The notes: generated from the sequence alone by a model not told the origin. A stretch of DNA of 4,335 bases from a virus (IMGVR_UViG_2534681647_000010); one strand, 5' to 3'; shown: positions 613 through 4,335, counted from the first letter of the stretch. Translations and numbers: made by a program.

Positions 613-681
613 TGAATTCATCTACAATTCAGCGCAGGGCTGAACCCCTGTTGAGTAACACTGTGCCACCGGAGAAAGCCG

Positions 682-960
682 ATGGCGCAAAATTCCAGAC
701 TACACAATTCTGATAATTCAGCCGTCTTTGCCAGCAGGCACGGGCGGCGTTCTCATGCATTCAAATCTGACTGGTTCCGGCACGCCCCATGCACTGAAGA
801 ACAGGCCGAATGGCTGATTCAGAACTACCGCAGACGTGGGTATGAGTTTAGGAAAGCCCTCAGCCTCGATTATCGTCACTGGATAATCTACGTCAGGCTG
901 CCGTACTCCGAGCGCCCACCGCGTCCGTCCCGCACATTCCAGCAACGCATCTGGAGGTAA
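682..960 (+). CDS. Hypothetical small basic protein (92 aa), translationally coupled to the downstream DUF968 gene
   Basis: ATG at 682 preceded by GGAG (671-674). The ORF exactly fills the gap between rem and the ydfU-like gene. Its stop TAA (958-960) lies 1 nt before the GTG start at 962 and directly follows the GGAGG (952-956) that serves as the next gene's RBS. Protein is Arg/His/Trp-rich and contains several rare Arg codons (AGA/AGG). No family recognised. Confidence 0.35.
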   Translation: MAQNSRLHNSDNSAVFASRHGRRSHAFKSDWFRHAPCTEEQAEWLIQNYRRRGYEFRKALSLDYRHWIIYVRLPYSERPPRPSRTFQQRIWR

Positions 961-961
961 C

Positions 962-2011
962 GTGCGGGTATTACTTCGACCTGTTCCGGTACCGGAACTT
1001 GGGGTGGTGGTCCTTAAACCAGGCCGTGAATCCATGCAGGTATTCCATAACCCTCGAGTGCTTGTGGAGCCGGAGCCGAAAAGCATGCGCGGTCTGCCGT
1101 CCGGCATCGTCCCTGCCGTTCGCCAGCCGCTGGCGGAGGATAAATCATTACTGCCGTTTTTCAGCAATGAGCGTGTGATTCGTGCTGTTGGTGGCGCTGG
1201 TGCACTGTCTGACTGGCTGTTGCGTCATGTCAAATCCTGCCAGTGGCCTCATGGTGACTATCATCACAGTGAAACCGTTATTCACCGTTATGGTACCGGC
1301 GCAATGGTGTTGTGCTGGCACTGCGACAACCAGCTGCGTGACCAGACATCCGAATCACTCGAGCAACTTGCTCACCAAAACCTGTCAGCATGGATGATTG
1401 ACGTCATTCGTCACGCAATGAATGGCACACAGGAGCGTGAATTATCGCTGGCTGAATTATCCTGGTGGGCGGCCTGCAATCAGGTGGTGGATGCACTACC
1501 TGAGGCAGTAGCGCGTCGTTCGCTGGGATTACCAGCGGAAAAAATCCGCTCCGTATACCGTGAGAGTGACATCGTACCGGGAGAACAGACAGCCATCAGC
1601 ATACTGAAGCAGCGCACAAAAAATATTGCGCTGCCACTTCACGTCCACCAGCAACAAAATCCACCACAGAAAAAAACGGTTGTCAGTATCGCCGTTGATC
1701 CGGAGTCTCCTGAATCGTTCATGAGGCGGCCTAAACGTTGCCGCTGGGTAAATGAGAAATACACGCGCTGGGTAAAGACACAGCCGTGTGCGTGTTGTGG
1801 TAAGCCTGCTGACGATCCGCATCACCTGATTGGTCATGGTCAGGGGGGAATGGGGACAAAGGCCCACGATATTTTCACGCTACCGTTGTGCCGGGAGCAC
1901 CACAACGAACTTCATGCAGACCCGCTGGAGTTTGAGAAAAAGTACGGCTCTCAGATTGAGTTAATTTTTCGTTTTCTTGATCACGCCTTTGCGACTGGCG
2001 TGCTCGGGTAA
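962..2011 (+). CDS. ydfU: YdfU-like prophage protein (DUF968 family) with C-terminal Cys/His-rich HNH-like zinc-finger motif; putative nuclease
   Basis: 349-aa ORF, GTG start at 962 with GGAGG at 952-956, stop TAA 2009-2011. The C-terminal segment CACCGKPADDPHHLIGHGQGGMGTKAHDIFTLPLCREHHNELH (about nt 1787-1915) has CxCC...HH...CxxHHNxxH spacing typical of HNH-type zinc-finger nucleases. Position (after rem, before rusA and Q) and length match the Qin YdfU as I recall it. Confidence 0.8.
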   Translation: MRVLLRPVPVPELGVVVLKPGRESMQVFHNPRVLVEPEPKSMRGLPSGIVPAVRQPLAEDKSLLPFFSNERVIRAVGGAGALSDWLLRHVKSCQWPHGDYHHSETVIHRYGTGAMVLCWHCDNQLRDQTSESLEQLAHQNLSAWMIDVIRHAMNGTQERELSLAELSWWAACNQVVDALPEAVARRSLGLPAEKIRSVYRESDIVPGEQTAISILKQRTKNIALPLHVHQQQNPPQKKTVVSIAVDPESPESFMRRPKRCRWVNEKYTRWVKTQPCACCGKPADDPHHLIGHGQGGMGTKAHDIFTLPLCREHHNELHADPLEFEKKYGSQIELIFRFLDHAFATGVLG

Positions 2012-2023
2012 AAGAGGTGACTG

Positions 2024-2395
2024 ATGCTCATAGATTTGGTTTTACCTTACCCGCCGACGGTGAACACTTACTGGCGACGCCGTGGCAGCACATATTTTGT
2101 ATCAAAAGCCGGGGAGCGTTATCGCCGGGCAGTGGTGCTTATTGTTCGCCAGCAGCGACTGAAATTAAGCCTGTCCGGACGGCTGGCAATAAAAATTATT
2201 GCAGAACCACCGGATAAGCGCCGCCGTGACCTGGACAACATTCTGAAAGCACCGCTGGATGCGCTGACGCATGCGGAAGTGCTCATTGATGACGAGCAGT
2301 TTGATGAAATCAATATTGTGCGCGGTCAGCCTGTGCCAGGTGGACGGCTGGGCGTGAAGATTTACGAAATCAGAGGTGGTAACGATGGCGCGTGA
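2024..2395 (+). CDS. rusA: Crossover junction endodeoxyribonuclease RusA (Holliday junction resolvase)
   Basis: ATG at 2024 with RBS AAGAGGTGA (2011-2019); stop TGA 2393-2395. Protein contains [13 protein letters not shown] near the N-terminus, the acidic core [14 protein letters not shown], a DDEQ segment and GGRL, which match the conserved RusA pattern (E. coli RusA has PDRRRRDLDN ... DDAQ ... GGRL). Confidence 0.9.
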
Positions 2396-2756
2396 TATCC
2401 AGATGGTTCTTGAGCGATGGGGGGCATGGGCAGCAAATAATCATGAAGATGTAACATGGCCCTCGATAGCTGCTGGTTTTAAAGGATTAATCCCGACTAA
2501 AGTGAAATCACGTCCTAAGTGTTCTGATGATGACGCCATGATAATTTGTGGTTGTATGGCACGATTAAACAAGAATAATCAGTATTTGCACGATTTGTTG
2601 GTGGATTATTACGTAGGTGGAATGACATTTATGGCTCTTGCACGTAAGCATAGATGTTCTGATGGGCTTATTGGTAAAAGGCTTTATAAAGCGGAAGGTA
2701 TTATTGAAGGAATGCTTATGGCTCTGAATGTCCGGTTAGATATGGATATGCGGTAG
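2385..2756 (+). CDS. Late-gene antitermination protein Q (short QuuD/phage-82-like type)
   Basis: ATG at 2385 preceded by AGAGGTGG (2373-2380); the track's start at 2376 is a GTG inside that RBS. Stop TAG 2754-2756. [25 protein letters not shown]... and the Cys-rich segments ([19 protein letters not shown]) are consistent with the short Q antiterminator family, to which DLP12 QuuD belongs. Overlaps the 3' end of rusA by 11 nt, as is typical for this operon. Confidence 0.85.
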
Positions 2757-2812
2757 GGATATATAGTGATGAGGGTTATGTTTTCTGTGTTTATAATTAA
2801 CATGTTTATTTT

Positions 2813-2846
2813 TTGATGGTCATGTATTGTGGAAGGTAGATAAAAT
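2813..2846 (+). promoter_or_regulatory. Candidate sigma70-like promoter just downstream of Q (possible late promoter or moron promoter); weak call
   Basis: TTGATG (2813-2818), 18-nt spacer, TAGATA (2837-2842), with TAAAAT at 2841-2846. The region is AT-rich, so hexamer matches are expected by chance; a perfect TATAAT also occurs at 2792-2797 without a good -35. Confidence 0.2.
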
Positions 2847-2847
2847 G

Positions 2848-2884
2848 TTGCCTGGTGAATTGAAAATATTGATAATCAATCTTC
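2848..2884 (+). promoter_or_regulatory. Candidate promoter of the CPBP gene with overlapping 13-bp perfect palindrome (operator-like)
   Basis: -35 TTGCCT (2848-2853), 17-nt spacer, -10 GATAAT (2871-2876). The perfect palindrome ATTGATAATCAAT (2868-2880) overlaps the -10. The element lies about 25 nt upstream of RBS AAAGGAG (2896-2902) and ATG 2908. Confidence 0.3.
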
Positions 2885-2907
2885 ATCATTAAATAAAAGG
2901 AGTGCTT

Positions 2908-3726
2908 ATGTGGATTGTGTTAGTACTGTCACTGTCAACTCTCAGTTGGCATAAGGTAGTGGCTTTTTCATTGTTGACGGTGTCTGTTGTCCTGGCTGTG
3001 CTTAATGATATTATTGATTGGTCGGTGTTATTTTTTGTTGCTACAATCGTTTTTTTTATTATTTTGAAGTTCAACTGGAAATATAACGCCTGGGCTAAAT
3101 CTATATATGAAGTTGGCATAGTTTTATCAGCCATAGCATTATTTTTCCATCTATGGCCAGGGTTTCACAATCCTGTAGTGCTAAATTCTGTTACTGTTGG
3201 CCCTCAAAGTACTCCCTATACAATGTATTTTAATTTTGATAAAGCGCTGGTGCCATTTTTGTTAGTCCTGTGTACATCTTCTTTGTTTAAAAAAGAAGTA
3301 AAATCAGAAGTGTCTTTGTGGAAGTGGGGGGCTCTGTCGCTCTCTGTTCCTCTTATCCTGTTTTTGGCTGTTTTTTTTGGTGGATTAAAGCCAGAGATTC
3401 ATTTTCCTGAGTGGTTGCCAGAGTTTATATTGGCTAATTTGTTTTTTGTGTCTCTGGCAGAGGAATCATTATTTAGAGGGTATATTCAATCACGGCTATC
3501 AGAAGTAACGTCTCCATTGGTTGCATTAATTGTGGCGGCTTTGTTGTTTGGTTTTTATCACTATTCAGGTGGTGCTTTACTTGTATTATTTGCCACGTTA
3601 TCTGGTGTTGTGTATGGATTGTCATGGATGTGGAGTGGGCGTTTGTGGGTTGCCACCCTTTTCCATTTTGGTTTGAATCTGTGTCACTTGTTATTCTTTA
3701 CCTATCCATTTTTAAAACATAATTGA
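2908..3726 (+). CDS. CPBP-family (CAAX protease / Abi-type) intramembrane glutamic metalloprotease; polytopic membrane protein
   Basis: ATG at 2908 with RBS AAAGGAG (2896-2902); the track start at 2902 is a GTG inside the RBS. Stop TGA 3724-3726. The protein is highly hydrophobic with multiple predicted TM helices and carries all three CPBP signature motifs in the correct order: EExxxR (EESLFR, nt 3460-3477), FxxxH (FGFYH, ending at H 3559-3561) and HxxxN (HFGLN, 3664-3678). The gene is AT-rich relative to its neighbours. Confidence 0.85.
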   Translation: MWIVLVLSLSTLSWHKVVAFSLLTVSVVLAVLNDIIDWSVLFFVATIVFFIILKFNWKYNAWAKSIYEVGIVLSAIALFFHLWPGFHNPVVLNSVTVGPQSTPYTMYFNFDKALVPFLLVLCTSSLFKKEVKSEVSLWKWGALSLSVPLILFLAVFFGGLKPEIHFPEWLPEFILANLFFVSLAEESLFRGYIQSRLSEVTSPLVALIVAALLFGFYHYSGGALLVLFATLSGVVYGLSWMWSGRLWVATLFHFGLNLCHLLFFTYPFLKHN

Positions 3727-3806
3727 TTTTTTCTATGGTTTTAAATTTATAAGACTGAAAAATAGCAGGACGTGACATTTGCATGAAAAATATGCACGGC
3801 AAAGCA

Positions 3807-3841
3807 TTTACGTACGTAAAAAATCAGGTATGCTGTTAAGA
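3807..3841 (+). promoter_or_regulatory. Candidate sigma70 promoter at the downstream edge of the AT-rich island; possible displaced pR'-like late promoter
   Basis: -35 TTTACG (3807-3812), 16-nt spacer, -10 TATGCT (3829-3834); predicted start near 3841. An intrinsic terminator follows about 30 nt downstream, giving a short promoter-terminator module. Confidence 0.3.
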
Positions 3842-3867
3842 GTGGTTATTTCGCCGCATAGCTTGAC

Positions 3868-3889
3868 CCCGCCTCTGAGCGGGTTTTTT
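3868..3889 (+). terminator. Intrinsic terminator (short GC stem plus T6)
   Basis: CCCGC (3868-3872) pairs with GCGGG (3879-3883) around loop CTCTGA, followed by TTTTTT (3884-3889). Oriented for + strand transcription; the reverse complement lacks a downstream U-tract. Could end the CPBP transcript, act as a tR'-like terminator, or both. Confidence 0.5.
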
Positions 3890-4012
3890 GTGCCCGCAAA
3901 GTAGCGCAGTGCGTTAAATGTGCTGGTAGTTATTAATACAGGTCTTTCAGCTTGCTGGCTTTTTCGACAAGAGTTATTGGTGTGTCACGTTAACCGGAAA
4001 GGGTAAAAAGAC

Positions 4013-4252
4013 ATGCTGAAACAGCAGGATATGACAGAAACCGCCAGAGTTGTGTTTGATGAATTAAGCGTCACCGAACCGGCGACGGTCGGGGAGATTG
4101 CGCAGAATACGTACCTTTCACGCGAGCGCTGCCAGTTAATACTGACCCAGCTGGTTATGCGGGTCTGGCAGACTATCAGTTCGGTTGTTACAGACGCCTT
4201 CAGTCCTGAAGGCTTTTTTATTTGTGGTAAATGGGCGGCTGGTGGGTGTTAG
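4013..4252 (+). CDS. Hypothetical small soluble protein (79 aa) with HTH-like segment
   Basis: ATG 4013 preceded by GGAAAGGG (3996-4003); stop TAG 4250-4252. The segment ATVGEIAQNTYLSRERCQLILTQL resembles a helix-turn-helix. No hydrophobic TM segment, so it is not a holin. No family recognised; could be a gene remnant. Confidence 0.35.
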   Translation: MLKQQDMTETARVVFDELSVTEPATVGEIAQNTYLSRERCQLILTQLVMRVWQTISSVVTDAFSPEGFFICGKWAAGGC

Positions 4253-4280
4253 CGGCACCTGTCAGTCCTTTGCTTATGTG

Positions 4281-4311
4281 TTGATGATAATTTACCTTTT
4301 GGGGCTATAAT
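4281..4311 (+). promoter_or_regulatory. Promoter-like element with consensus -10 (TATAAT) near the window end; weak call
   Basis: Perfect TATAAT at 4306-4311; the nearest -35-like hexamer, TTGATG (4281-4286), gives a 19-nt spacer, which is suboptimal. Any downstream target lies outside the window. Confidence 0.2.
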
Positions 4312-4335
4312 TGAACTAACCAATTGCTAATGAAA

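Follow-up and report, generated by a model that had tools for sequence, protein, structure and literature searches.

What does a lambdoid prophage gain from a gene for an intramembrane protease placed directly behind its antiterminator gene Q? The question is raised by a 4,335-nucleotide stretch of viral DNA (IMGVR_UViG_2534681647_000010; the window, hereafter), in which a gene for a CPBP-family (Rce1-like) intramembrane glutamic endopeptidase of 272 aa runs on the plus strand from an ATG at 2908 to a stop codon ending at 3726. The answer that we favour, at a probability of roughly one half, is that the gene is cargo of a lambdoid prophage and encodes a predicted active protease that would alter the envelope of the lysogen. 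The same 819-nt coding sequence is annotated by RefSeq under the product name "CPBP family intramembrane glutamic endopeptidase" (WP_000265265.1), and it corresponds in Sakai to ECs_1085, "phage CAAX amino terminal protease family protein", of the lambda-like prophage Sp4, where it adjoins Q (ECs_1084); PHROGs places the protein in a family of unknown function. The gene was previously known and annotated through RefSeq and Sakai, yet it is unstudied. What is added here is a correction of where the gene lies with respect to the late promoter, the linkage of Q, cargo and promoter, a list of alternative cargoes and a chromosomal origin of the subfamily.

The translated protein matches the Pfam family PF02517 at residues 169–258 (70.6 bits against a cut-off of 22.4, E 1.4e-19; profile positions 3–92 of 93), and a motif script locates the three catalytic motifs in order: EESLFR at 185, FGFYH at 214 (with H218) and HFGLN at 253 (with N257). 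The first-pass annotation of this DNA had described an intact CPBP reading frame with all three motifs, had numbered the catalytic residues as E185, E186, R190, H218, H253 and N257, and had named a profile hidden Markov model search as its check. The Pfam match, the motif script and the alignment bear out this description, the numbering is exact and the profile match is significant. Across 14 homologues, the most distant at 47% identity, these six residues do not vary. A further segment, HLxPGFHNP...GPxSxPYxMYFNFDKA (residues 81–113), is invariant or nearly so and lies outside the Pfam match; it is a conserved addition to the Rce1/CPBP family, which comprises type II CAAX prenyl endopeptidases and bacteriocin-processing enzymes. 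To our knowledge, bacteria have no prenylated CAAX substrate. The protein, whose AlphaFold model has a predicted local distance difference test score of 87.6, has a polytopic alpha-helical membrane fold like that of Rce1. It is only 15–17% identical to the solved structures of the family, and a profile search of PDB sequences with it gave zero matches at E ≤1. All NCBIfam equivalogs scored below their cut-offs (MrtP 33 against 250, MrtS 31 against 130, MrtC 27 against 195, MroQ 14 against 270); the scores for the myxosortases and MroQ reflect resemblance at the level of the motifs only, and the protein lies outside these families. Taken globally, the sequence argues for a putative, catalytically competent Rce1-type glutamic intramembrane endopeptidase.

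The closest solved structure, at 15% identity, is that of SpdC/LyrA (lysostaphin resistance protein A) from Staphylococcus aureus, a partner of the SagB glucosaminidase whose structure entry is titled a peptidoglycan-release complex. By analogy, the prophage protein might be a non-proteolytic scaffold or regulator that binds a partner enzyme or sensor as SpdC does, and cleaves nothing. We consider this quite improbable: the invariance of the six catalytic residues across the 14 homologues argues for retained catalysis. The protein of the window keeps every catalytic residue; its Gram-negative host and its location in a prophage further set it apart from SpdC.

The position of the gene relative to the late genes was analysed through the region on either side of it. 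Upstream lies a Q antiterminator gene of the QuuD/PF06530 type (2385–2756, plus strand; Pfam Phage_antitermQ, E 8.7e-52; a RefSeq coding sequence has the same coordinates). Downstream, the window contains a compact unit that opens with a perfect 14-bp palindrome, TTTACGTACGTAAA (3807–3820, with no strand assigned), a candidate Q-binding element overlapping the -35 hexamer of a putative late promoter PR' (3807–3834, plus strand; -35 TTTACG, a 16-nt spacer and -10 TATGCT at 3829–3834). After the palindrome come 8 nt, TATGCT, GTTAAGAGTGG and a hairpin with a T-run, such that a short leader from GTTAAGAGTGG and an intrinsic terminator detected by a terminator scan (3835–3890 together, plus strand; stem 3868–3883, T-run to 3890) would constitute a putative tR' with a 6S/StxS-like short RNA. 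The model for this assignment is the DLP12 prophage of E. coli K-12 (NC_000913.3, about 577195–577290; L251 5696–5790), which carries the same unit about 200 bp before essD, in the gene order quuD, nmpC::IS5, palindrome/promoter/terminator, essD-rrrD-rzpD. Because the DLP12 unit lies just ahead of the lysis genes, we infer that 3807–3890 comprises the late promoter PR', the Q-utilisation site and tR'. No prior description of this candidate Q-binding site and late promoter was found in the literature.

The unit is widely conserved. Its promoter geometry is kept in the window, in two diverged loci with a CPBP gene (L008 and L010), in K-12 and in 18 representative loci. A scan of IMG/VR for the palindrome together with the -10 hexamer returned 119 loci; a QuuD-type Q lies within 4 kb upstream in 103 of them, most of the others being cut by a contig end, and a hairpin with a T-run follows within about 110 nt in 107 of 118. 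Among the 80 closest Q relatives, those without the exact 14-mer have TTTACGATCGTAAA at the same spacing. The change from TTTACGTACGTAAA to TTTACGATCGTAAA keeps the dyad symmetry, as would be expected for a protein-binding site. TTTACGATCGTAAA occurs in one Q subgroup, and the palindrome unit is found behind QuuD-type Q genes in more than 100 viral contigs, at distances from 28 nt to about 2.9 kb. The locus of E. coli UR21/11-869 (L005) was considered as a counter-example, having a similar Q and no palindrome, and was rejected, since such loci bear TTTACGATCGTAAA further downstream, with a C4/IsrK module right after Q. The prophage small RNA svsR was likewise set aside as unrelated, being located at the 3' end of cI. 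From about 3819/3834 onwards the window is 87–89% identical to Stx2 phages and phiP27, in which this block comes right after Q or its cargo; in Stx2_EH2201 it starts 37 nt after the Q stop codon.

Among the IMG/VR loci, the interval between the Q stop codon and the palindrome comes in discrete length classes, which defines a cargo slot. The slot is empty in 15 loci (28–65 nt), holds ORFs (open reading frames) of 187 or 197 aa in three (about 0.8 kb), CPBP in seven (about 1.05 kb), an nmpC-type porin gene on the minus strand in about 80 (about 1.55–1.68 kb), other ORFs in one (about 1.7 kb), and the porin gene with IS5, as in DLP12, in one (2.9 kb). The GC (guanine plus cytosine) fraction of the cargo is 0.39–0.48. 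Between Q and the conserved block, phiP27 has a GIY-YIG nuclease gene, and the slot of Stx2_EH2201 is empty. A further cargo of the slot occurs in the UR21/11-869 locus (L005 3404–3599) and in L314–L326, where a P1-like immunity module stands directly 3' of a closely related Q; it consists of a C4 antisense RNA (74 bits), a1b1 targets and an isrK-family RNA (79 bits), followed by a gene with an ORF6N domain.

From this comparison, the CPBP gene appears to be optional, moron-type cargo of lambdoid prophages, as the first-pass annotation had proposed: in related prophages of the same Q family the slot is vacant or occupied by other genes, and CPBP is not ubiquitous at the site downstream of Q. 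The accompanying claim that the gene occupies an stx-type slot did not hold: in DLP12 the palindrome/promoter/terminator unit comes just ahead of the lysis genes, and the CPBP gene is upstream of this unit. The gene would thus sit in the nmpC porin slot, ahead of the late promoter, and Q antitermination should therefore not control it. The stx morons, which are likewise found between Q and the lysis genes, are placed 3' of the late promoter/terminator and of tRNA genes and are Q-dependent; the CPBP prophage shares with them the downstream layout of tRNA and nanS-p-like genes. The nmpC gene of DLP12 resembles the CPBP gene in occupying the same slot between a QuuD-type Q and the late unit, in its low GC (0.39–0.41) and in encoding an envelope protein. 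The two differ in that the porin is an unrelated outer-membrane beta-barrel encoded on the opposite strand, whereas CPBP is an inner-membrane protease co-oriented with Q. Both nmpC and the lc porin gene of phage PA-2 are classic lysogenic-conversion genes.

Q and its cargo are inherited together. The CPBP gene is carried by 572 of 5,426 complete E. coli genomes (547 at ≥99% identity), and the Q allele of the window with its spacer by 571. Anything between Q and its cognate promoter would travel with both, which would explain this near-equal carriage. The Q-CPBP-promoter segment thus seems to behave as one inherited module: the CPBP gene would be locked inside a pair that sets late-gene specificity, and recombination parting Q from its cognate promoter would break late-gene control. 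The count of 572 is largely clonal, the strains among the carriers listed being mostly O157:H7, O55:H7 and O111. The pairing extends well beyond these close copies. CPBP proteins only 59–62% identical are encoded in otherwise different E. coli and Shigella prophages, directly 3' of a QuuD-type Q and followed by the palindrome, and at each of the 43 prophage-type loci Q directly precedes the gene and the palindrome follows it. Both features are absent from all 81 chromosomal loci with homologues (80 fetched from a species-level scan, plus L011). The comparison suggests that the pairing is old and recurrent. A homologue with 55% identity and 287 aa (L330/L331 3741–5268) is preceded by a Q of the lambda type (PF03589) and immediately followed by a holin gene; there, a promoter (TTGATT...TATGCT) and a terminator separate Q from the CPBP homologue, an stx-like position in the late operon. 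With this locus, the CPBP subfamily is found beside Q genes of two unrelated families.

Such tight linkage could also trap a gene between Q and the promoter as a neutral passenger, with no gain to the lysogen. The near-equal carriage (571 and 572 genomes), the predominance of clonal O157:H7 and O55:H7 carriers, one copy interrupted by IS1 and three broken copies out of 40 in IMG/VR would all suit such a passenger. Of the readings weighed here it is nevertheless the least probable. The ratio of nonsynonymous to synonymous substitution rates (dN/dS, Nei-Gojobori method, window against other prophage copies) is 0.12–0.25, including pairs with dS >1, the catalytic residues are invariant, and the Q-CPBP pairing persists at 59–62% protein identity in otherwise different prophages. 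Intact copies make up 37 of the 40 in IMG/VR, and the gene is retained under purifying selection in the PV15-279 prophage, whose terminase and portal genes are frameshifted. The dN/dS values, the intact copies and the invariant residues argue against a decaying passenger and against a purely non-catalytic role.

Expression of the gene was considered from the DNA upstream of it. A candidate sigma-70 promoter, TTGCCT-N17-GATAAT (2848–2876, plus strand; consensus scan and conservation), precedes a Shine-Dalgarno sequence AAGGAG (2897–2902, plus strand) that ends 5 nt before the ATG. Other promoter-like hexamers 5' of the gene are TGGTCA-18-TAAAAT and TTGAAA-18-CATCAT. The promoter scan of 2300–4335 gave 10 sites against 5.3 ± 2.1 in shuffled sequences, an excess that taken alone is weak evidence. 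TTGCCA or TTGTCA with N17-GATAAT is conserved in variants 83–97% identical to the window, and the diverged loci L008 and L010 have good hexamers of their own at a similar distance from the CPBP gene, with GGAGG and AAGGAGG, respectively, at the position of the Shine-Dalgarno sequence of the window. TTGCCW-N17-GATAAT is a promoter-like element of the kind noted in the first-pass annotation, shared by variants of 83–100% identity and followed by a strong Shine-Dalgarno sequence. As for the AT-rich block described there, the composition of the CPBP gene is indeed atypical (GC 0.377, with 0.285 in the spacer between Q and CPBP, against 0.53–0.54 in the DUF968 gene and rusA), but the low-GC block extends beyond the gene: it runs between about 2400 and about 3830 and includes Q (0.42). 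The low GC of Q itself would follow from slot cargo, Q and promoter travelling together.

Two routes of expression can be proposed: transcription in the lysogen from the gene's own AT-rich candidate promoter, and read-through from early transcription after induction. The second is suggested because the interval between Q and the CPBP gene is free of terminator-like sites in the terminator scan; the only terminator 3' of the gene is the 3868–3890 hairpin, shared with the putative late promoter unit. By the second route the protease could serve the lytic cycle, being made with Q (or with the late genes, where it is located elsewhere) on induction and aiding phage development or the timing of lysis by acting on a membrane protein of the host or the phage. 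The shared orientation with Q, the uninterrupted interval between them and the L330 homologue, located after the terminator, directly before the holin gene and inside the late operon, are what such a function would lead one to find. However, the gene is dispensable, as many phages of the same Q family have no CPBP gene or carry unrelated cargo; it has its own conserved promoter-like element and a strong ribosome-binding site; and purifying selection persists in defective prophages. We regard a lytic role as rather unlikely.

Relatives outside phages give a different view of the ancestral function. Full-length homologues with 45–60% identity occur in 289 species-level genomes, mostly of Enterobacterales, including Providencia, Proteus, Photorhabdus, Xenorhabdus, Serratia, Enterobacter, Pantoea and Dickeya. 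No phage genes were found near the homologues at the 81 chromosomal loci. At 46 of these loci the homologue follows a ModF-like (ATPase) gene, and at 33 it precedes a gpmA-like gene, both names having been assigned from the start of the neighbouring sequences. The Pseudomonas aeruginosa homologue (L332 4001–4819) lies between an iPGM gene and genes for M23 and S41 (Ctp-type) peptidases, neighbours that hint at a link to the cell wall. A phosphoglycerate mutase gene stands beside the homologue in both lineages, gpmA-like in many Enterobacterales (L052–L131) and iPGM in Pseudomonas. Neither a bacteriocin gene nor an obvious substrate gene was found in the chromosomal neighbourhoods, for which reason the ancestral role looks like a stand-alone envelope function. 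Full-length homologues with about 50% identity were also found in three assemblies of Helicobacter spp. (L061, L071 and L109), amid the Enterobacterales matches, and could be due to horizontal transfer or contamination.

These relatives are the basis for supposing that the prophage copy merely replaces a chromosomal gene such as those of Proteus, Providencia, Serratia, Photorhabdus, Enterobacter and Pseudomonas, performing general envelope or cell-wall processing or quality control with no specific action against phages or toxins. The homologues of about 50% identity in 289 species-level genomes, the 81 loci free of nearby phage genes, the ModF-like and gpmA-like neighbours, the iPGM, M23 and S41 neighbours in P. 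aeruginosa and the SpdC complex, going by its entry title, all lean in this direction. Set against them, the gene is absent from most E. coli genomes (present in 572 of 5,426), the prophage copies form a separate clade that is always linked to Q, and the other cargo of the slot is accessory (a porin, a nuclease, an antirepressor module). On these grounds we consider a housekeeping replacement unlikely, if better placed than a role in the lytic cycle.

We therefore return to the preferred reading, prophage cargo that modifies the envelope of the lysogen. Mechanistically, the protease would act at the inner membrane, cutting either a peptide or, close to the membrane, an envelope protein, and the cleavage would change the envelope to the benefit of the lysogen. 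Most likely, the lysogen would gain immunity to a peptide toxin that acts on membranes, or it would exclude incoming phage. The nearest precedent that we found for protection is McsI of E. coli G3/10, the immunity protein for microcin S; it is described as a CAAX-protease-family protein and, belonging to the same superfamily, would exemplify how such a protein can make E. coli immune to a peptide toxin (PMC3316575). By its description, McsI differs in having 216 aa and in being encoded within a microcin operon, whereas no toxin, export or precursor gene is adjacent to the CPBP gene. A more specific proposal, which we hold to be possible though unlikely as it stands, is that the prophage CPBP protein is a lysogenic-conversion factor of enterohaemorrhagic E. 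coli (EHEC) that, from the inner membrane, cleaves an incoming peptide toxin of the microcin type or a host or phage membrane protein needed for DNA entry. The recurrent capture of the CPBP subfamily beside Q in two unrelated Q families fits such a factor.

Several observations weigh against this interpretation. The abortive-infection link suggested in the first-pass annotation finds no support, as no PADLOC model matched the CPBP protein at E ≤0.1. No bacteriocin or substrate gene is adjacent, the neighbours being Q, the TrmB-like ORF, a helix-turn-helix protein gene and tRNA genes, and the pairing of a cognate bacteriocin or microcin gene with export genes that would mark self-immunity is absent from the flanks. 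The flanking spacers contain only ORFs of ≤41 aa, none precursor-like and each lying across or antisense to promoter-like hexamers or the terminator, which agrees with the earlier remark that no partner gene is visible; an orphan immunity gene is possible. The chromosomal homologues, alone in housekeeping surroundings, would suit a general function in the envelope no less well than specific immunity. The position of the gene relative to the late promoter appears not to be fixed across phages, judging by L330, and tblastn found no homologue in 50,697 deposited phage records, all copies being in prophages, some of them defective. The promoter of the CPBP gene, the assignment of the late promoter and the binding of Q to the palindrome are proposals drawn from sequence comparison. 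Finally, our literature searches found no published work on the CPBP gene or ECs_1085 and located neither an experiment nor expression data assignable to the gene; a pneumococcal prophage paper that mentions CPBP was irrelevant, CPBP being there only an integration target.

Should the protein protect lysogens from microcins, colicins or phages, it would matter for how EHEC compete in the gut and for interventions with phages or probiotics; as a conversion factor, it would be the first characterised immunity or exclusion determinant of the CPBP family that is Gram-negative and carried by a phage. Apart from the protease, the comparison offers a picture of the QuuD-type late-control region, in which a dyad-symmetric candidate Q site is joined to the late promoter, and cargo encoding a porin, protease or nuclease, or an antirepressor module, occupies the slot that separates Q from this site. 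This picture predicts which prophage cargo genes would escape control by Q.

The remainder of the window has the layout of a prophage segment. It opens with the 3' end of hokD, encoding the C-terminal part of the Hok toxin (1–137), followed by two small phage ORFs, the DUF968 gene (962–2011) and rusA (2024–2395). The Rfam scan of the window gave a single match, sub-threshold and isrK-like (24.9 bits against a gathering score of 50 bits), to a stem-loop with a T-run just 3' of the hokD coding sequence (143–224). A spacer of 286 bp separates the CPBP gene from the first ORF after the terminator, a small TrmB-like ORF of phrog_331 (4013–4252, plus strand). This ORF has 79 aa in the window, whereas its counterpart in phiP27 and other phages has 65 aa (198 nt); according to RefSeq it is frameshifted in O157:H7 and O55:H7.

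The window as a whole is a mosaic. Positions 2757–4012, and with them the Q-CPBP part, are 100% identical to E. coli O157:H7 genomes, and 661–4335 overall is only about 95% identical to the O157:H7 locus. None of the best full-length matches listed among complete E. coli genomes exceeds 96.5% identity, while IMG/VR contigs reach 98.9–99.7%. The Sp4 prophage of Sakai also has pchA, annotated as a transcriptional regulator, a few kilobases downstream (L328 33366–33680).
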